From a virus: DNA of 64,000 nucleotides. A model generated the notes under the pieces. The model saw only the letters and a program-made list of their open reading frames with translations. It had not been told where the DNA came from and searched no databases. This document shows, one piece after another, positions 10,379-61,700 of this stretch (within the stretch, counting starts at the first letter, position 1; each line of letters opens with the position of its first letter). The DNA lies in the IMG/VR virus record IMGVR_UViG_3300045988_101018, positions 61,635 to 125,634 of that record; one strand, written 5' to 3'. The position numbers and the translations under genes are program-made.

Positions 10379-10936
10379 CAGTACAATCTTATTTGTTGCT
10401 AGAGTTTTTTGAACATTTATTACACGCTGATTTGAACTTCCACACCACTTTAAAGATATGTCATTAAGCTCATCAACATATTTACCATCGACAACAACAT
10501 CGCACATAGAAACAATGTTCTTTCGAGCTGTCTTAACTTTAACAGTCTTAAAAAAGTCTAATGGGTTTAAATCATTTAACATAGCTGGCTTAAAGATTTG
10601 TTCCCATGTAAATCCAGTATACAGCCAGATTTTCTTGTCTGGAAACTTGGCTTTAATGTCTTTGATGAGAGAAAGAACATCGTATACATTTTCAGGCTCA
10701 AGCGGCTCTCCACCAAGGATGGTTACTCTGGCAACAAACGACTGCGCAACAAGCTTAAGAAACTCTTCTTTAGTCTGCTTAGTCCATTCTTTGCCACCAG
10801 TAAATCCCCATGTCTCACTGTTAAAACAGTTTTTACAATGGGCGCGGCACCCTTGTACAAAAAGAGAAACGCCGATGCCGCTGCCATTTGAAATATCCAT
10901 CTTGCGAATTAATGCATACCTAATTTTAATCACCAT
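10367..10936 (-). CDS. nrdG: anaerobic ribonucleotide reductase activating protein NrdG (radical SAM)
   Basis: VQGCRAHCKNC = CxxxCxxC cluster at N-terminus; directly downstream of nrdD; true start probably at 10900 (MDISNGSG). Confidence 0.85.
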   Translation of the reverse strand: MVIKIRYALIRKMDISNGSGIGVSLFVQGCRAHCKNCFNSETWGFTGGKEWTKQTKEEFLKLVAQSFVARVTILGGEPLEPENVYDVLSLIKDIKAKFPDKKIWLYTGFTWEQIFKPAMLNDLNPLDFFKTVKVKTARKNIVSMCDVVVDGKYVDELNDISLKWCGSSNQRVINVQKTLATNKIVLYNN

Positions 10937-11045
10937 CTTCCGCTGGCATATCGTCTACATGAAGGACACGCTCTTTAATCTCTTGAGTGCGTCCAGCATT
11001 CCAGAAGTTACTTCCAATGTCCTTACTACCCTCGGTTTCCCGATA
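10926..11045 (-). CDS. nrdD: nrdD exon 2 (C-terminal 39 aa: YRETEGSKDIGSNFWNAGRTQEIKERVLHVDDMPAEDGD)
   Basis: translated by hand; continues the glycyl-radical motif RRTCG|Y and matches NrdD C-terminal NAG...E..RV.H; no start codon of its own. Confidence 0.6.
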   Translation of the reverse strand, partial: YRETEGSKDIGSNFWNAGRTQEIKERVLHVDDMPAEDGD

Positions 11046-11710
11046 TTTATTAGGGGAGTAGACTATACAATCTAATCATTACCAATACGTTAAAGCCCAC
11101 TTATGAAACGACCAGTTTCTTCATCTCGTTTTAAATTACCAAGCGATACTGCATAGCCAACATTTTCTTTTGTGGTACACCACTCTAGATTCTCTGCCCT
11201 ATTGTCATCTCTTTGGCAATTTTTATGATTAACCACATTTTTATTATCTGGATTCGGAATAAAGTATTTCGCAACTAACCTATGAACATATAAGTCTTTG
11301 CGTTTCCCAGTTGACATCTGCCTACAACATATTCTCATATATCCATTTTTTGTTGGCCTTGGATTTATTTCGTATAATTCTGTGGTTTTGTCGTTCCTTC
11401 TTCTATTTCCCTTACCTAAATTACAATATACCTTTCCGTCATCAGAAATAAAGTATCCATCAAAATCTTCTATTGGCTTCATCATGCGCATCACCTCATT
11501 AGAGGTAATGATTAGTCGGTATTATAGTCGTTGAAGGTTTCTCCTATTTAGGAGACTTCCCTGCGTTTGATTACCCAATTCTTAACGATGTTACCATACC
11601 AAGTCCGTTACTACTCGCCGCAATTATATTACTATAATTGTTTGGTTGTTAAGACTCTAAGGGCTTCCCCGCAATTTAACCGATTTAACGTGGACTACAT
11701 TTTACTTCAA
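11046..11710 (-). mobile_element. intron-like intervening sequence in nrdD (probable group I intron) carrying an HNH endonuclease ORF
   Basis: ~665 nt between nrdD exon 1 (ends RRTCG) and exon 2 (starts YRETEG); boundaries approximate, ribozyme core not verified. Confidence 0.5.
11090..11494 (-). CDS. HNH homing endonuclease (intron-encoded)
   Basis: 134 aa; VNHKNCQRDDNRAENLEWCTTKEN HNH motif. Confidence 0.8.
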   Translation of the reverse strand: MMRMMKPIEDFDGYFISDDGKVYCNLGKGNRRRNDKTTELYEINPRPTKNGYMRICCRQMSTGKRKDLYVHRLVAKYFIPNPDNKNVVNHKNCQRDDNRAENLEWCTTKENVGYAVSLGNLKRDEETGRFISGL

Positions 11711-46420: not shown

Positions 46421-46506
46421 TGGCGGAGACATTGGGAATCGAACCCAAACTAGATTGCTCTAGGACACCTTAGCAGGGTGCTGCGCTACCTTTACGCCAT
46501 GTCTCC
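46421..46506 (-). tRNA. tRNA-Ser (anticodon GCU), type II with long variable arm
   Basis: cloverleaf folded by hand: acceptor GGAGACA/TGTCTCC, anticodon loop CUGCUAA, T-loop GGTTCGATTCC, CCA encoded. Confidence 0.8.
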
Positions 46507-46596
46507 TTCGTTGCGGGGTGCGTTGCCAACTACACCACATGTCTTTTGTAAAATAACATAATAATAAGCACATGGCTACTTATTTTCCGTCTATAC

Positions 46597-46680
46597 TGAG
46601 ACACGTCTGGACTCGAACCAGAGACAGTTGAGCCGTTATCATCCATGAGAATCTGGCTTTATCGTGATTATATCCACGCC
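46597..46680 (-). ncRNA. tRNA-like 3' fragment (T-arm TCTGG-TTCGAGT-CCAGA plus acceptor-like strand) with no matching 5' acceptor; preceded by extended -10 promoter TTGACATTGTATAAT
   Basis: T-arm consensus present but no cloverleaf could be completed; possible degenerate tRNA or small RNA. Confidence 0.3.
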
Positions 46681-46720
46681 CCGATTATTATACAATGTCA
46701 ACTATGACAAGAAAAAATCA

Positions 46721-46796
46721 TGGAGCCGATGACAGGAATCGAACCTGCAACAGACTGATTACAAATCAGTTACTCTACCAATTGAGTCACATCGGC
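46721..46796 (-). tRNA. tRNA-Thr (anticodon UGU)
   Basis: acceptor GCCGATG/CATCGGC, anticodon loop TTTGTAA, T-loop GGTTCGATTCC, CCA encoded. Confidence 0.8.
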
Positions 46797-46815
46797 AATT
46801 GTGCAATTGATTGTG

Positions 46816-46889
46816 TGCGCTATGTAGGATTCGAACCTACGACCTACAGATTAGAAGTCTGTTACTCTATCCAGCTGAGTTAATAGCGC
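46816..46889 (-). tRNA. tRNA-Arg (anticodon UCU)
   Basis: acceptor GCGCTAT/ATAGCGC, anticodon loop CTTCTAA, T-loop GGTTCGAATCC. Confidence 0.8.
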
Positions 46890-46940
46890 ACACAATCAAT
46901 TGTTGTATATAAAAGATATTATATCATATCTTAATATATC

Positions 46941-47025
46941 TGGTAGGGAAGAAGGGATTCGAACCCTCACGCTCTATGAGCAAGAGATTTTAAGTCTCCG
47001 ATGTCTGCCATTCCATCACTTCCCC
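46941..47025 (-). tRNA. tRNA-Leu (anticodon UAA), type II
   Basis: acceptor GGGGAAG/CTTCCCT, anticodon loop CTTAAAA, long variable arm, CCA encoded. Confidence 0.8.
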
Positions 47026-47031
47026 GAGTTT

Positions 47032-47106
47032 TGGTATCGGCTACGGGAATCGAACCCGTGTTTCCACCTTGAAAGGGTGATGTCCTAACCGTTAGACGAA
47101 GCCGAC
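47032..47106 (-). tRNA. tRNA-Glu (anticodon UUC)
   Basis: acceptor GTCGGCT/AGCCGAT, anticodon loop CTTTCAA, T-loop GGTTCGATTCC, CCA encoded. Confidence 0.8.
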
Positions 47107-47109
47107 ATT

Positions 47110-47195
47110 TGGTGCCGCATCTAGGTAACGCTCCTAGCCAGTCATAGACATTGGATTTACAGTCCAACCCTCGTCTTTAAAGGATTACTGCGGCA
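47110..47195 (-). tRNA. tRNA-Tyr (anticodon GUA), type II, non-canonical T-loop (AGCGTTA)
   Basis: perfect 7-bp acceptor TGCCGCA/TGCGGCA, anticodon loop CTGTAAA, CCA encoded; D- and T-arms atypical. Confidence 0.6.
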
Positions 47196-47197
47196 AT

Positions 47198-47274
47198 TGG
47201 TGGACACAGTAGGATTTGAACCTACGACCTTATGCGTGTAAAGCATCTGCGCTAACCAGCTGCGCCATGCGTCC
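47198..47274 (-). tRNA. tRNA-Val (anticodon UAC)
   Basis: acceptor GGACGCA/TGTGTCC, anticodon loop TTTACAC, T-loop GGTTCAAATCC, CCA encoded. Confidence 0.8.
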
Positions 47275-47275
47275 G

Positions 47276-47351
47276 TGGTGGGGTCGGTGGGGGTCGAACC
47301 CACGACCTTGGGATTAAAAGTCCCCTGCTCTTCCAACTGAGCTACAACCCC
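47276..47351 (-). tRNA. tRNA-Lys (anticodon UUU)
   Basis: acceptor GGGGTTG/CGACCCC, anticodon loop CTTTTAA, T-loop GGTTCGACCCC, CCA encoded. Confidence 0.8.
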
Positions 47352-47355
47352 GTTA

Positions 47356-47430
47356 TGGTGGGAGATGAGTGAGTCGAACACTCTTCAATCCGTTATAAGC
47401 AGACTGCCCTAACCGTTGTGCTAATCTCCC
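47356..47430 (-). tRNA. tRNA-Ile-like with anticodon UAU (AUA decoder) - unusual
   Basis: acceptor GGGAGAT/ATCTCCC, anticodon stem GTCTG/CGGAT with loop CTTATAA, T-arm GAGTG-TTCGACT-CACTC, CCA encoded. Confidence 0.6.
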
Positions 47431-47461
47431 ATAGCCATTACAATAGACGGTAATATATCGT

Positions 47462-47547
47462 TGGCAGTGACAAGATTTGAACTTGTATACAGGAGCTACC
47501 TGTTTTGCCCATTAAAGCATAGCGTATACCGATTTCGCCACACCGCC
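47462..47547 (-). tRNA. type II tRNA-like gene (Leu/Ser/Tyr-class architecture) with unresolved anticodon arm containing UUUAAUGG (possible 8-nt loop)
   Basis: acceptor GGCGGTG/CACTGCC, T-arm ACAAG-TTCAAAT-CTTGT, variable arm ACAGG-TAGCT-CCTGT; no standard 5-bp/7-nt anticodon stem-loop could be drawn. Confidence 0.5.
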
Positions 47548-47560
47548 AAGTCACATTACC

Positions 47561-48700
47561 GTCTATGGAATATATACTTTTCAAGCATGGTCTATATGCT
47601 CTTAGATCGATTCTGGCAATAAATCTGTTCATACCATACAACAACACGCAATGATAATATATACTCCATAGACGGTGGTAGCTTACTAAAGTCCTCACCA
47701 ACTACCAGAGGGGTCACTTATTTTAAATACCGTCCGCGCTGGCAGACCTTCCAACGCTACCGATTTTACGCAACGGTGTACGCTTAACAGTCCGCTTCCT
47801 CCGTTAAGACAAGGGGTAACATTACGCCGTTACCATGCGCCCAAGACTTGTCAGGTAGCTATCTCCATCGTAAACCTTGGGACTAAGCGTTAACGGAAAA
47901 TACGTTTGAGTTAAATTGGAGCAACCATGAAACCAAAACAGAAAGGAGCCATTGTATTTTCCGTCTGCGGAATCGTACCGCACCATCTGTATCAGCAAAG
48001 CAACCAAAAACCTAATACAGAATCGAACCTCGCTTTGTCGGTCAAGCAAACCAACGCGAAAGATTGTCTCAGGCCTTCGCCTTACCTTCATAAAACGTAG
48101 TGGTAATTCGGTCACATAGGAAATGGAGCTGAGACACAAGGAGCGACCTCGTATCTTTCCATCCCAACTTGCGTCAATCTATGGCTGGATTGGCTACCAA
48201 CAACTTTCACCCACCATTCAGCATATTAATCTTCTATACTATCCAAATTTGGGCTACTCGTACTCACGTCTGGTCTTATAGCTGATTACCAGCATCAATT
48301 GGACAACTATCTTGTGGCACTCCAAGCGATTGGCATAGCTGCCACACTATCCTCTACTTGGTTCAATGAAGTGCGTACCTCATATCTATTGCGATAGCGA
48401 CCAGTTAGCGATACCATTTTCTTGCGTTTCATCACAGCACCGTGTCTGCCCTCAGTTGAGATTTTCCATCTCTCCTGCCCTTCTAAAGATGTCAGTTACC
48501 TGCATCAGGCAAAGCCTACCTATAGGGTATCCTCTATAGTGGAACTCTTTGAACACGTCCATGACCCAATGGAATTTGGAATACACATGGTTGAAACAAT
48601 CCTTCGCGTTGATTTCTCAACGCTGATACTTTATGCAAATATCAAGGTGCAACTGGAAACTTCCGTTTCTCTGTGTCAGATATTATAGCATCTAACTTTA
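47561..48700 (-). ncRNA. ~1.1-kb ORF-poor, GC-richer region adjacent to tRNA array: candidate large structured ncRNA (ROOL/GOLLD-like?); strand not determined
   Basis: only short random-looking ORFs; 18-bp near-perfect inverted repeat 47569-47587/47650-47668; composition differs from flanks; context typical of phage large ncRNAs. Confidence 0.35.
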
Positions 48701-48857
48701 TCAGTTGCAAGAACTTTTTTGAACTTTTTTCCATCTTCTTTTCTCAAGGTGCTCATCAGATTGATCTGCGATTTGTCCGCGTCTCTTTCTGACATCAACT
48801 ATATTACACGGTGCCTATATCTATGTCAACAACTTTTTTAGAAAATTTTGAAAACTT

Positions 48858-48882
48858 TTTTCGTGGCAGTCCGCATTGCATC
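48858..48882 (-). promoter_or_regulatory. hairpin AGTCCGC-ATTGCATCA-GCGGACT at 3' end of gene 48900-49241 (weak terminator, no U-run)
   Basis: read directly. Confidence 0.3.
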
Positions 48883-48899
48883 AGCGGACTAAATATGTA

Positions 48900-49241
48900 T
48901 CAACAAACATAGGCAATGATATTATAGCAGATATTTGCAATGGTAAAAAATATAGAACACCTAAAATCTTCCGTCAATTTAAACTGCACATCACATACGC
49001 TGTCAAAAGAGAAATTTGAAATAGTAGTTTTAAAGCAGTCATTCCGTCTGATTATCATTCTATCGTCCTCTAGCGAAGCTGTGACATTTTCTTCAAAAGA
49101 CCTTAAAATAAATGTATATGGTCTTGCTATATATGTATCTATGTTTACCGATTCAAACTCTATCTTGTCTTCGAGAACACGTTTAAGCTCGGTCTTATCG
49201 CCATTGGAAAATCCGTATTTACTATAGTCGAACATATGCAA
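48900..49241 (-). CDS. hypothetical protein
   Basis: 113 aa ORF. Confidence 0.45.
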   Translation of the reverse strand: MHMFDYSKYGFSNGDKTELKRVLEDKIEFESVNIDTYIARPYTFILRSFEENVTASLEDDRMIIRRNDCFKTTISNFSFDSVCDVQFKLTEDFRCSIFFTIANICYNIIAYVC

Positions 49242-49350
49242 ATGCTCCTCTCAAGAAGTGTGTTGTGAAATATTTAGAATATAGCAATACTTCACAACAC
49301 TAAGATATTAGCACCAAACCATATCATTTGCATCATATAAAATATTCCAT

Positions 49351-50292
49351 CTAAGAAGAGAAAATATCTATATGGCCTTTGACCATTTCCCTGAAGTTAC
49401 GCACTGGCGTATCGCACATGCTGCGCTTCAATTCATCTGAAATTATTCCATTCACTTTTCTATCCTTGTTATTATCCGCAAAGGCATCTTTGATATTTAT
49501 CCCGCACTTGTCTAATTCCAATGTTATCCTGTGCATTATTCCGCTCACATATATCTGTAGCGGCAGCAGATTATATCCAACATAGTTCTTAGATATATTC
49601 CGCAATAGCCTATAGTAACTGAACCTATAGGAATATTCCGAACTGCCTTTGCGATTCTCCACCTTGAAACAGCTGTCTTCATGCAATCCGACTATTGGTA
49701 TCTTGCATGTCCCATACCTGTTCCGTCTTTCCCATATATCAATTTCGCTCAGCTTAATCAAATCATCGGCTAATTTTTCCGATATAGATATATCATACGG
49801 CTCGCCATTATCGGGCTTTAACGTTGCTCCATCCCACCATATATTTTCCGCTCTAAGGTTTTTCACAACGCTCATATCATCATTATAGACACCTTCATAT
49901 AGGCTTCTAAACAATGTCTGTATATAAAATCCGTTATAGTCCTCATACATTCCTATATCATGGTATATCTTTTCAAACTGCGCATTGGAAATAAATTTCT
50001 TAGAAGCATTTGGTTTGGCTAATGACCAAAGAATATTCCGATCCAAATCATTCAACATATATTCCATATCTTTATTGCCAAGATATTTGGCATACAAACC
50101 AAGGATATATATAATAGTCGTTATAGCCTTTGGGCTATTAGGATTCATTCCTAATATAATATTCTGTAAATCAACAGGTGTGCAATTTGAATAATCATAT
50201 TCGCCTATAACACATAATGATTTAGCCACCTTTGCCGTGTTATCGGAATCAAATGTCTGTATAAAGTCATCAAAATTTTTCCGCAAAGACAA
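49351..50292 (-). CDS. hypothetical protein (313 aa)
   Basis: long ORF downstream of Int3; no recognised motifs. Confidence 0.5.
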   Translation of the reverse strand: MSLRKNFDDFIQTFDSDNTAKVAKSLCVIGEYDYSNCTPVDLQNIILGMNPNSPKAITTIIYILGLYAKYLGNKDMEYMLNDLDRNILWSLAKPNASKKFISNAQFEKIYHDIGMYEDYNGFYIQTLFRSLYEGVYNDDMSVVKNLRAENIWWDGATLKPDNGEPYDISISEKLADDLIKLSEIDIWERRNRYGTCKIPIVGLHEDSCFKVENRKGSSEYSYRFSYYRLLRNISKNYVGYNLLPLQIYVSGIMHRITLELDKCGINIKDAFADNNKDRKVNGIISDELKRSMCDTPVRNFREMVKGHIDIFSS

Positions 50293-50394
50293 GCGCTCCC
50301 TTCTCTTAGTTTTGTTTTATCACTCCAACGCTCTCCAATATCTAAGATTATAATAAACAAAGGCGGCTGTCAAAAAACAACCGCCTTATATCAA

Positions 50395-50580
50395 TTACTT
50401 TGCGTATGCCGCTACTGAAATTTTTCCGTATGACTGTTCGGCCTTACTCACATAGTAATCAAGATTTTCCATCTTCTTGACTATAGTTTTATTATCAACG
50501 CCACTCTCAATATCTTTCCAGTACAAATCCCAGTCAAATACCATGTTTGTAATGTCTTTTTTCCGACCAAAGATACCCAT
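50395..50580 (-). CDS. small hypothetical protein
   Basis: 61 aa ORF. Confidence 0.4.
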   Translation of the reverse strand: MGIFGRKKDITNMVFDWDLYWKDIESGVDNKTIVKKMENLDYYVSKAEQSYGKISVAAYAK

Positions 50581-50595
50581 GATACCAACCTTTCA

Positions 50596-51405
50596 TTAGA
50601 TAAAATCGTAACCAAGCTCAAGACTGTCGAACACGTCTTTGATTTCATCGTCCATAATGCCGATGTATTTTCGTGTAGTAGCCACGCTGCTATGATTGAA
50701 CACATAGCTTAGAATGACAAGCGCCTTGTCCTTATCTTCCGCATCATGCCACGCCCTAAAGCCGAATGATTTCCTCAAGGAATGGCTACCGATATTCTGA
50801 TTGATCCCAGCTTCCTTGGCTGCGCTCTTAACGATACGCCAAAGGGTAGTAGCCGCAATAGCACCGTCACCCTCACGGGATTTAAACATATACTCGTTTA
50901 AATTATCCACAGGAAATTCATTAAGGTACTCTACGACAACCTTCTTGACAGTGTTATTAAAGAACAGCTTAACAAACTTCTTCTGCTTGCGTGTTTTTTT
51001 AGGTTGCAAAGTATAGAAGTCCTTAAACTTATACTCCCCGTCCTTAACGCAGTCCAAGAAGAAACTCCATTTAAGCGTAATCAAATCGCTTGCACGCAGA
51101 CCGACATTGATGCCGATAACGAACAGCAACTTATTCCGACTGGCAAGCTGACGATGATGCTCATCGGTGGCTTCATTGATATGCTTGTCAAACACATCAA
51201 TCATAGACTTAATCTCTTCATCGGTACGGAAAGCATACACCTCAGAAGATACACCAGCAGGCTTTAATCCGCCGCTATTATCACGAGCCTTCGGACTTTT
51301 GGGTTTAACGTCTTTGGTGCCTATGATAACGCTAAACGGAATGATATTGTTCTGCTGCTTTTCTTCCACAACAACTGGCGCAAATGCTGGACTAGCCATT
51401 ATCAA
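50596..51405 (-). CDS. tyrosine recombinase (Int3), short form
   Basis: 269 aa; GLRASD (Arg), HSLRKSFG (HxxR), SVATTRKYIGI (Tyr); preceded by GTAGTTATCAAGTAG motif. Confidence 0.75.
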   Translation of the reverse strand: MIMASPAFAPVVVEEKQQNNIIPFSVIIGTKDVKPKSPKARDNSGGLKPAGVSSEVYAFRTDEEIKSMIDVFDKHINEATDEHHRQLASRNKLLFVIGINVGLRASDLITLKWSFFLDCVKDGEYKFKDFYTLQPKKTRKQKKFVKLFFNNTVKKVVVEYLNEFPVDNLNEYMFKSREGDGAIAATTLWRIVKSAAKEAGINQNIGSHSLRKSFGFRAWHDAEDKDKALVILSYVFNHSSVATTRKYIGIMDDEIKDVFDSLELGYDFI

Positions 51406-51450
51406 TCCCTTCCTCTCGTCTTTCTTTACTATATTCTACCTTATATCAAT

Positions 51451-51470
51451 GTAGTTATCAAGTAGTTAGC
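51451..51470 (-). promoter_or_regulatory. conserved motif GTAGTTATCAAGTAG (copy 1 of 4) upstream of Int3
   Basis: read directly; ~45 nt upstream of start codon. Confidence 0.4.
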
Positions 51471-51555
51471 TCATATTTTTGCAGTCAATTTTGAAAATAA
51501 AAAAGGGTGGAACGATAAACATTCCACCCATCTATTATAACCTATATATAAGGTG

Positions 51556-51774
51556 TTATTCTTCTAAATCAAGATCCAACTTATTCTTTTCAAACTTAAT
51601 ACGAAACTCGCCATTTGCAAACTGTCGCATAAGAATCTCTAGCACCGTATTCATAGAGAAACCAACCTGTTTGCAATAGGCACTGAAAGCGTCTTTAACA
51701 TCCTTGTCGATGGTTGTATTGAGTACAACCTTATTGTTTTCCACCATGCTAATCCCAATCCTCGTCACGCACAC
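51556..51774 (-). CDS. ribbon-helix-helix protein (RelB/DinJ/CopG-like) paralog 1
   Basis: 72 aa; LNTTIDKDVKDAFSAYCKQVGFSMNTVLEILMRQFA matches RHH antitoxin/repressor pattern. Confidence 0.55.
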   Translation of the reverse strand: MCVTRIGISMVENNKVVLNTTIDKDVKDAFSAYCKQVGFSMNTVLEILMRQFANGEFRIKFEKNKLDLDLEE

Positions 51775-51961
51775 GGGTAGACTTTACGGCCACAAAATCA
51801 TCGCACCATGAATCATCATCCAAGTATACAATCTCCCACTCATGCGCCTTGCAATAGCCTGCTTCATCGTCCTCAACTTCAAAGCCATTATCAAACGGCT
51901 CGCAATTACGACAGTTAGCGCAGCAGCGTGGATGAATCTTAGACATTTTTTCTCCTAACAA
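51749..51961 (-). CDS. small Cys-rich acidic protein
   Basis: 70 aa ORF, CCANCRNC. Confidence 0.4.
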   Translation of the reverse strand: MLGEKMSKIHPRCCANCRNCEPFDNGFEVEDDEAGYCKAHEWEIVYLDDDSWCDDFVAVKSTRVRDEDWD

Positions 51962-52303
51962 TTAGTACAAATCAAACTCACGAATGAAATAACATGAATT
52001 ATTATATGGATATTCCTCGTCATATGGCACATGCCACTCTATATATTCTCCACCATATCCGTTCTCGACCTGCTTTATATAGCCGCAATCATCAAGATAT
52101 TTAGCGGCATCATCATAGCTGGAAAAGATTCTATCTATGTCTTGATAGTTATCATCATACTCTTCTCCGTTATCATACCATACAACATATACCTTGTCTT
52201 TGACTGCCTGTGCCATCTTGGTAAACGTATCATCAATCTTTTTCGTTGCCGCCTGCGGAACTACAGTTGGCTCTTCCATGACAATAAAACCAACATCACT
52301 CAT
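51962..52303 (-). CDS. hypothetical acidic protein
   Basis: 113 aa ORF. Confidence 0.45.
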   Translation of the reverse strand: MSDVGFIVMEEPTVVPQAATKKIDDTFTKMAQAVKDKVYVVWYDNGEEYDDNYQDIDRIFSSYDDAAKYLDDCGYIKQVENGYGGEYIEWHVPYDEEYPYNNSCYFIREFDLY

Positions 52304-61399: not shown

Positions 61400-61700
61400 T
61401 TTTCCAGCCTATGATTTTCCAGCGCGTCAAATCTCCACAAATGCTCCACGGTTTCTCCATATTCCAGTCTAGGATTTTCTCCATGAAACCTCTACAAAGA
61501 TTCCATAATTCCTCCATCAAAGTTCCACGAAACTTCCATCAAAGCTCCATAGCTTTTCCATCAGATGCACATAAAATCTCCATCAAAGTTCCATAGATTC
61601 TCCACATTTTCTCCATAATTATGGATCCTCCACAATGTCTACATATTTTCTCCACAGCTTCTCCATGAAAAAATTACAGAATCTCCATAACTTTTTCCAT
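61400..61700. repeat. phased array of TCCA(T/C) motifs at 11-bp (and 22-bp) spacing over ~24 helical turns
   Basis: TCCA start positions 61434,61445,61456,61502,61513,61524,61535,61546,61557,61579,61590,61601,61612,61651,61662,61684,61696 measured from sequence. Confidence 0.6.

Follow-up and report, generated by a model that had tools for sequence, protein, structure and literature searches.

We have analysed a 64,000 nt stretch of viral DNA (the window; positions 61,635 to 125,634 of IMG/VR record IMGVR_UViG_3300045988_101018), in which the region between the last tRNA-like gene (47460–47548) and the next plausible gene (48900–49241) holds short, overlapping open reading frames (ORFs) only. 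Both of these genes lie on the minus strand, as do the RNA elements of this region described below. That strand carries, in conserved order, a ROOL RNA, another large structured RNA, which is of the RAGATH-36 type, a long hairpin, a tRNA-like element and eight tRNA genes, and the layout is kept across 13 relatives in IMG/VR, on viral contigs of approximately 78–131 kb. We regard the region, with a probability of roughly 0.9, as the leading half of an operon of non-coding RNAs that belongs to a large phage. A first-pass annotation, made from the letters of the sequence, had described it as a GC-richer stretch next to the tRNA genes, and this is true to a modest degree: the G+C content is 44.4 % at 47549–48614, as against 36.4 % at 48615–48900, 38 % at 48901–52000 and 39.1 % for the whole window, and the tRNA array is no less GC-rich (45.7 %).

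The upstream part of the region (48052–48614; 563 nt) matches the Rfam ROOL model (RF03087) along its full length (model positions 1–574 of 574, untruncated), with 288.1 bits against a gathering score of 99.1 and an E value of 4.8e-65. It is the sole match other than tRNAs in the whole window in a scan against Rfam 15 at gathering thresholds; the segment 47300–49300 was also scanned permissively, at E values of up to 1 to 10. The covariance-model alignment contains few non-canonical pairs in its nested and pseudoknot helices, and the closing helix is complete at 48052, where the model ends. Among nine relatives of the same clade, in which ROOL is 90–99.6 % identical, 13 predicted pairs carry changes in both partners without loss of pairing, and few pairs are broken. 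By its score, its maintained ornate fold and its phage and tRNA context, which are the properties of ROOL that can be judged from sequence, 48052–48614 is thus a new member of this family. The first-pass annotation had put forward ROOL or GOLLD beside the tRNA cluster as its leading idea and had proposed covariance-model and covariation analyses; both bear out ROOL, and the identification was incomplete, in that ROOL fills 563 nt of the ~1.1 kb region and the remainder consists of other structured RNAs.

The present RNA resembles the ROOL RNAs described by Weinberg et al. (2017; PMC5737381) in the full-length model match, in its size, in its multi-junction pseudoknotted architecture, in its phage location and in having a same-strand tRNA array downstream. 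It differs from them in that the variable internal linker (approximately model positions 355–395) is short, and in that the sequence 16 nt beyond its 3' end begins a further large structured RNA rather than a tRNA or a terminator. Nine tRNA and tRNA-like genes on the ROOL strand, from 47548 down to 46421, start about 500 nt downstream of it; of 59 further ROOL loci with sufficient flanking sequence, 34 have a same-strand tRNA within 1.5 kb downstream. ROOL RNAs are already known as giant RNAs of phages that form hollow cages, and the solved examples are octamers (env-120 and E. faecalis) and a hexamer (L. salivarius) (PMC12286853, PMC12990946). Because of its homology with these structures, the ROOL described here would be expected to self-assemble into a hollow homo-oligomeric cage.

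The 16 nt linker GUUUGCUUGACCGACA (48036–48051), identical in 12 of 13 aligned relatives (L036 differs), leads into the second structured RNA, of about 365 nt (47670–48035), which we refer to as the companion RNA and which combines a match to RAGATH-36 (RF03104) with extra modules. From its 5' end it comprises a 5' module, AAGCGAGGUUCGAUUC (48020–48035), and a hairpin, P0 (47987–48020), followed by the part that the Rfam model matches (47813–47985; E value 1.3e-6 in a 521 nt search, with model positions 1–128 fully covered). Within the latter lie P1, a T-loop-like hairpin (47966–47983); P2, a stem with a 61 nt insertion (47954–47964 paired with 47893–47903); the junction AACGCUUAG (47883–47891), after which comes P3; and the P4 hairpin (47815–47834). 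Beyond these are a clade-specific insert (47758–47812), the P6 hairpin (47736–47757), the 5' strand of P7, GGACGG (47730–47735), a core, GUGACCCCUC (47708–47717), the P8 hairpin (47676–47707) and the 3' strand of P7, CCGUCU (47670–47675).

The hallmarks of RAGATH-36 occur here in their proper order: UGGUGCGGUACGAUUCCGCA, UAACGCUUAG, the base of P3 (UCCCAAG/CUUGGG) and the P4 hairpin. The likeness to the 128 nt Rfam model thus includes the blocks UGG-NNCGGUACGAUUCCGNN and UAACGCUUAG, the order of P1, P2, P3 base and P4, and the phage context; the differences are the P2 insertion, a different distal P3 and the lower score considered below. More than 50 loci share the invariant blocks AAGCGAGGUUCGAU, CGGUACGAUUCCG and UAACGCUUAG as well as the loop of P6 and the GUGNNNCCNN core, and the 5' module AAGCGAGGUUCGAU with P0, as well as the 3' modules P6, P7, core and P8, are present also at loci with RF03104 scores of 96–152 bits. 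Taken together, these shared elements show 47670–48035 to be homologous to RAGATH-36-type RNAs. The flanking modules are defined by the present analysis and lie outside the Rfam family; no Rfam family was matched by the 5' extension or by the 3' modules, whether taken from the window or from a canonical locus. Since they add ~24–50 nt upstream (AAGCGAGGUUCGAU and P0) and ~75–250 nt downstream (P6, P7, the GUGCAUCCUU core and P8), here and in canonical members, the Rfam RAGATH-36 appears to be only the centre of an RNA two to three times larger.

Comparison of 66 members (52 of them unique) from all retrieved loci gives a consistent picture of this larger RNA. Every member opens with an invariant (A)AGCGAGGUUC, usually followed by GAU, and in all clades but one this block is followed by the P0 hairpin, the stem of which is clade-specific in sequence and covaries among clades (GCC/GGC, UCGC/GCGA, CCUGCG/CGCAGG and UCAAC/GUUGA; CUGUAUUAG/CUGAUACAG in the window). 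On the 3' side of the Rfam-modelled part come P6, with the loop AA(A/G)NNCUG, the P7 5' strand, a conserved core (GUGCAUCCUU in the family, GUGACCCCUC in the window), P8 and the P7 3' strand. At its fixed place in the structure, the long-range helix P7 is built from at least 12 distinct pairs of sequences, among them ACGGGA/UCCCGU, GUGGGA/UCCCAU, GUGGGG/CCCCAU, GAGGGU/ACCCUU, GAGAGCC/GGCUCUU, CAGCAG/CUGCUG and GCGGUAGU/ACUACCGU, with GGACGG/CCGUCU in the window. In 18 clade representatives, compared as excerpts in hand-chosen registers, 97 % of the cells of P6, P7 and P8 are paired and all 15 pairs have changed on both sides; the covariation score is 1.08, compared with 0.28 for shuffles (none of 500 reaches the observed value) and at most 0.24 for slid partners, and P7 pairing falls from 5.0 to 2.7 of 5 when partners are swapped between clades. 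A MAFFT alignment of the 3' modules showed 1 nt register shifts between clades and served neither for counting pairs nor for building a covariance model, and automatic longest-complement parsing of P7 and P8 was discarded, as it returned spurious G.U-rich matches.

In several clades (loci L004, L010, L026, L152 and L159) a tRNA begins immediately after the P7 3' strand of the companion-type RNA, an arrangement suggesting that RNase P sets the 3' end there, and in other clades a ribosome-binding site and start codon follow P7. With a tRNA downstream in some clades and a start codon in others, the RAGATH-36-type RNA is a free-standing module rather than the leader of a single gene. It contains two T-loop-like motifs, GGUUCGAU in the 5' module and GGUACGAUUCC in P1; these, together with its habitual place among tRNA genes, permit the speculation that its role is related to tRNA. 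Among the papers searched in full text none mentions RAGATH-36, which was reportedly described in the same paper as ROOL, and no role for it is recorded in them. We also observed a direct repeat between 47920–47950 and 47999–48029 (74 % identity over 31 nt); the 61 nt insertion in P2 may have arisen by partial duplication of the 5' module and P0 of the same RNA, and the resemblance could also be due to chance.

The pairing of ROOL with a companion has a narrow distribution. A blastn search of 47400–48900 against the INPHARED phages, in distant mode, gave no match, and relatives were taken from IMG/VR by pattern scans. With two invariant RAGATH-36 blocks, such a scan found 33 loci with a short hairpin 2 (CGGTACGATTCCG ... 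AACGCTTAG), which are canonical or variant RAGATH-36 RNAs scoring up to 152 bits, often situated among tRNAs, RAGATH-4, RAGATH-16, tmRNA or the Pistol ribozyme and never adjoining ROOL, and six loci with a long hairpin 2, all six of which have ROOL upstream, ~69 nt away from these blocks. Seven further relatives came from scanning with a ROOL core pattern; the companion is present after 12 of 114 core matches (the window and 11 relatives), at a fixed distance of 168–169 nt past the core, two of the 13 relatives not matching the core pattern exactly. Because all long-hairpin-2 loci have ROOL and these 12 core matches have the companion, the tandem is, within the sequences scanned, specific to one clade. 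The window is phage DNA and encodes DNA polymerase III alpha, a DnaB-like helicase, an exonuclease, a dCMP deaminase and integrases. Its polymerase has its nearest counterparts in Clostridioides and Bacillus phages, with 50 % identity to the enzyme of Clostridioides phage pCD1602_4 and ~45 % to the enzymes of large Bacillus phages. A clade-specific 28-mer found no match in representative bacterial genomes, so none of these would carry the clade as a prophage.

The extended family itself reaches into bacterial genomes. A scan of bacterial genome contigs with GCGAGGTTC-N19-49-GGTACGATTCC gave 28 matches, of which 10 have other family motifs; the remaining 18, in Streptomyces, Planctomycetota and similar organisms, were set aside as chance, about 40 chance matches being estimated for a database of this size. 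The true members are mostly in metagenome-assembled genomes of Clostridia (Oscillospiraceae, Ruminococcus, Roseburia, Herbinix and Acutalibacteraceae). Loci of the canonical RAGATH-36 clade have RAGATH-16 and RAGATH-4 ~2 kb further upstream, in fixed order and with the same orientation, as at positions 671–742, 919–1053 and 2840–2968 of L003 (IMG/VR loci L001–L033 and L149–L167); other variants are found inside tRNA arrays, near tmRNA (L009 and L032) or near a Pistol ribozyme (L026).

Two sigma-70-like promoter-like sites precede ROOL, each matching 10 of 12 consensus positions. The distal site (48801–48829) has a -35 hexamer TTGACA (48829–48824), a 17 nt spacer and an extended -10 element TGTAATAT (48808–48801), with an A/T-rich stretch upstream, and its hexamers are kept in all ten relatives aligned, including L034 and L038, in which the sequence further upstream is unrelated. 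The proximal site (48682–48710) has TTGCAA (48710–48705), a 17 nt spacer and an extended -10 element with TG before it, TGCTATAAT (48690–48682); it is preceded by the A/T-rich GGAAAAAAGTTCAAAAAAGTTC and is likewise kept in ten of ten relatives, with one change in L038. Promoter-like matches are no more numerous in the scanned region than in shuffled sequence, and it is from conservation that we infer a promoter function for both sites. A consensus scan found no minus-strand promoter-like site between ROOL and 47549, and inspection of the long hairpin by eye revealed no convincing promoter, its sole scan match (9 of 12) being on the plus strand. The leader between the proximal site and ROOL (48615–48675, with the start estimated at ~7 nt after the -10 element) is nearly invariant in ten relatives. 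Its segment 48615–48640 carries GCGUUGAGAAAUCAACGC, which is invariant in the same relatives and is able to base-pair with the ROOL closing helix on its 5' strand; as a potential competitor of the true 3' strand it may help to direct folding during transcription.

Downstream of the companion lies a long hairpin (47558–47676) with 19 nt arms, TATATACTCCATAGACGGT at 47658–47676 and ACCGTCTATGGAATATATA at 47558–47576, which are 18/19 complementary and 81 nt apart (loop 47577–47657). Complementary segments had been noticed here in the first-pass annotation and do exist, although they were placed about 10 nt away and the second was slightly misquoted; they lie outside ROOL and belong to this hairpin and repeat system, downstream of the companion RNA. 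The first 6–7 nt of the 5' arm double as the P7 3' strand of the companion (CCGUCU, 47675–47670), and the underlying motif occurs in four copies on the RNA: GGACGGUAU (the P7 5' strand), ACCGUCUAUGGAG (the hairpin 5' arm), CCAUAGACGGUAAUGU (the hairpin 3' arm) and AUAUUACCGUCUAU (beyond the tRNA-like element, on its downstream side). They can pair in two ways, either as the full 19 bp hairpin or as P7 with a 12 bp distal hairpin and a 13–14 bp stalk around the tRNA-like element, in which AUAGACGGUAAUGU (47553–47566) pairs with AUAUUACCGUCUAU (47443–47456) so that element and stalk together span 47443–47566. The relatives favour the three-helix scheme: in L036, P7 reads GGGCGG/CCGCCU, which is compensatory for P7 and disrupts one pair of the full hairpin; in the stalk, a compensatory C-G occurs in L038 and the U.G intermediate in other relatives; and one position of the distal hairpin is variable. 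This last position is the lone mismatch of the arms, which is G.U on the minus-strand RNA and A.C on the plus strand; in relatives it is G.U, G-C or A-U, and never A.C.

The loop of this hairpin is hypervariable. Across the window and L034–L040, L051, L101, L110, L116, L122 and L126 it takes the form of at least four unrelated sequences of 52–154 nt between flanks that are 92–100 % identical, and in a blastn search against all retrieved sequences the loops found only their own homologues; this looks like a cassette-like replacement. In L038 (~10738–11142) there is also a tandem duplication of the hairpin and the 5' part of the tRNA-like element, the junction of which resembles the ACCGTCTAT repeat, and this suggests that repeats of the ACCGTCTAT type recombine at the DNA level. 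It could be supposed on these grounds that the system at 47443–47676 acts mainly as DNA, its ACCGTCTAT/ATAGACGGT copies being a hotspot of recombination or insertion or a small mobile cassette, since unrelated loops occur in otherwise near-identical relatives and the L038 duplication is bounded by repeats. We consider this improbable as the main function. Substitutions in the hairpin (G.U, G-C or A-U), in the stalk (U-A, U.G or C-G) and in P7 obey the rules of RNA pairing on the minus strand only, L036 has a compensatory A-U to G-C change in P7, and one of the repeat copies is the P7 3' strand, part of a helix that is conserved throughout the family while its sequence varies between clades. 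To judge from these substitutions, the pattern in the repeats shows selection on RNA pairing, and a recombination hotspot would be compatible with it as a possible additional property.

The element within the stalk (47462–47547) was called by ARAGORN as 'tRNA-???', with a 6 nt loop and a 2 nt anticodon, and scores 40 bits with the Rfam tRNA model (gathering score 29). RNAalifold of ten relatives predicts a cloverleaf with acceptor stem, D arm, long variable arm and a T arm whose stem has four compensatory pairs; the anticodon arm, which should have a 7 nt loop, is replaced by an invariant 5 bp stem with a UAAU tetraloop. Because of this replacement the element is tRNA-like only and cannot serve as a normal decoder. 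Eight canonical tRNA genes follow at 46421–47430 (Ile-UAU, Lys, Val, Glu, Leu-UAA, Arg-UCU, Thr and Ser-GCU), called by ARAGORN and scoring 50–73 bits with the Rfam tRNA model.

These observations can be assembled into a model in which transcription would begin at one or both of the sigma-70-like sites (48829–48801 and 48710–48682) and proceed leftwards on the minus strand through the leader, ROOL (48614–48052), the 16 nt linker, the companion RNA (48035–47670), the hairpin with its hypervariable loop (47676–47558), the stalked tRNA-like element (47566–47443) and the eight tRNAs (47430–46421). That the minus strand is the RNA strand is argued by the substitutions, which give G.U pairs on that strand, and by folding: the minus strand of 47549–48051 has a z-score of -3.7 relative to shuffles, none of 100 being as good, whereas the plus strand (z -1.3) is no better folded than its shuffles. 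Co-transcription is suggested by the fixed 168–169 nt spacing, the conserved linker, the conserved promoter-like sites and the lack of a promoter between the RNAs. ROOL would assemble into its cage, RNase P and RNase Z would excise the tRNAs, and the companion would either stay tethered to the ROOL 3' end or be freed by cleavage in the hairpin or stalk, both of which resemble processing sites for a double-strand-specific (RNase III-type) enzyme. Processing stalks are familiar from rRNA, and RNase III hairpins from polycistronic phage transcripts; the present helices, of 13–19 bp and long-range, similarly bracket the tRNA-like element or separate units, and the resemblance is one of analogy. 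We can only place ROOL and the RAGATH-36-type RNA in a tRNA-supply module of the phage, and to our knowledge no biological role has been established for ROOL.

Several points weigh against this model. Promoters, co-transcription and processing are all deduced from sequence, and the P4 hairpin (47815–47834) matches a weak terminator pattern, the only such match between ROOL and 47549. The RF03104 score of the companion, 39.6 bits, is below the gathering score of 70, which we attribute to the 61 nt insertion in P2 and the divergent distal P3. The covariation test of P6–P8 employed excerpts with registers chosen by hand; with free registers in anchor-defined windows, 15 of 18 true partners are at the maximum as against 10 % of swapped partners, which leaves the covariation clear but weaker than in the hand-registered test. 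Finally, oligomer state is not readable from sequence, and one solved ROOL is a hexamer rather than an octamer (PMC12990946).

The same fixed spacing and conserved linker, with neither a promoter nor a convincing terminator between the parts, would also be expected if 47549–48614 were one giant RNA, the downstream ~500 nt of which formed a clade-specific 3' domain of ROOL. We find this very unlikely, because RNAs of the companion type with the same modules occur without ROOL at more than 50 other phage or prophage loci, where they adjoin tRNAs, ORFs, RAGATH-4, RAGATH-16 or tmRNA, and because 102 of the 114 ROOL core matches have no companion; moreover, the match to the ROOL model of Rfam stops cleanly at 48052, where the closing helix is complete. 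A protein-coding gene over part of the region has next to no chance of being correct: its best case is the longest ORF, of 105 amino acids (47822–48139), which has a TTG start, overlaps the companion RNA as well as ROOL and carries interruptions or frameshifts in the majority of the 13 relatives despite >90 % nucleotide identity, the stop-free stretches there ranging from 34 to 108 amino acids in shifting frames, with indels of 1, 2, 13 and 20 nt in RNA loops. With no conserved ORF among these relatives we rejected coding, and the statement of the first-pass annotation that the region holds no credible gene agrees with this. Equally negligible is the idea, which that annotation had raised in part, that the region is a replication origin, a group I or II intron, tmRNA, RNase P RNA or GOLLD: the region has inverted repeats and A/T-rich tracts and adjoins a tRNA array, beside which such elements also occur, but none of these RNAs matched its Rfam model in the window at gathering thresholds or in 47300–49300 at the permissive thresholds (E of up to 1 to 10), the cumulative GC skew runs straight through the region without inflection, and the other RNAs account for the region fully.

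A further possibility is that ROOL and the companion, possibly with the tRNA-like element, stay one covalent molecule and form a natural cargo-bearing cage, with several copies of the companion on its outside. According to Ling et al. (Nature 2025, as summarised in PMC12515178), engineered RNAs placed on the ROOL 3' end (an aptamer, a suppressor tRNA precursor and a pri-miRNA) leave the octamer able to form and are displayed radially, which makes a tethered companion physically plausible. The arrangement here is alike in the attachment of an RNA at the ROOL 3' end and differs in being natural and clade-specific; in the cell it may be lost through processing. GOLLD offers another comparison, as a large, ornate, cage-forming phage RNA beside tRNA clusters, some examples of which have an embedded tRNA (PMC12990946); it is distinct in sequence and fold, and its model finds no match here. 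In such a cage the companion could serve as a multivalent tRNA mimic or as a binder of the tRNA elbow, for example recruiting or decoying host factors for tRNA processing or tRNA targeting during infection. We think the cargo-bearing cage unlikely.

Few natural RNAs are known to form a closed cage made of nothing but RNA, and ROOL is among them; a further ROOL next to phage tRNA genes, its textbook context, adds little in itself. What is modestly new is the natural tandem of ROOL and a companion in one clade, and RAGATH-36 as the core of a larger RNA. In the window and 13 contigs a second large RNA begins 16 nt past the ROOL 3' end, the site at which engineered cargo is tolerated and shown on the cage, and the tandem thus provides a natural construct for studying cargo display and a possible handle on ROOL function. 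RAGATH-36 would, if our reading is correct, be redefined as the core of a class of RNAs of 250–450 nt, and the larger unit, with its covarying helices, two T-loop-like motifs and in some cases tRNA-abutting 3' ends, would change how it should be modelled, searched for and tested.

Two minor observations concern the tRNA genes. The 91 nt spacer between tRNA-Glu and tRNA-Val (47107–47197), which neither ARAGORN nor the Rfam tRNA model called, folds with a z-score of -2.1 into a tRNA-like shape that ends in ACCA. It has an acceptor stem of 7 bp, a T-like arm whose loop reads AGCGUUA and an anticodon-like loop of the sequence CUGUAAA (GUA, Tyr); it has no D arm, and may be a degenerate or unusual tRNA-Tyr. 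ARAGORN also reports 'tRNA-???' genes with 2 nt anticodons at L007 69–143 and L026 5997–6082, in arrays with a RAGATH-36-type RNA, and tRNA-like elements with abnormal anticodon loops may thus recur in the tRNA arrays of phages that bear RAGATH-36.

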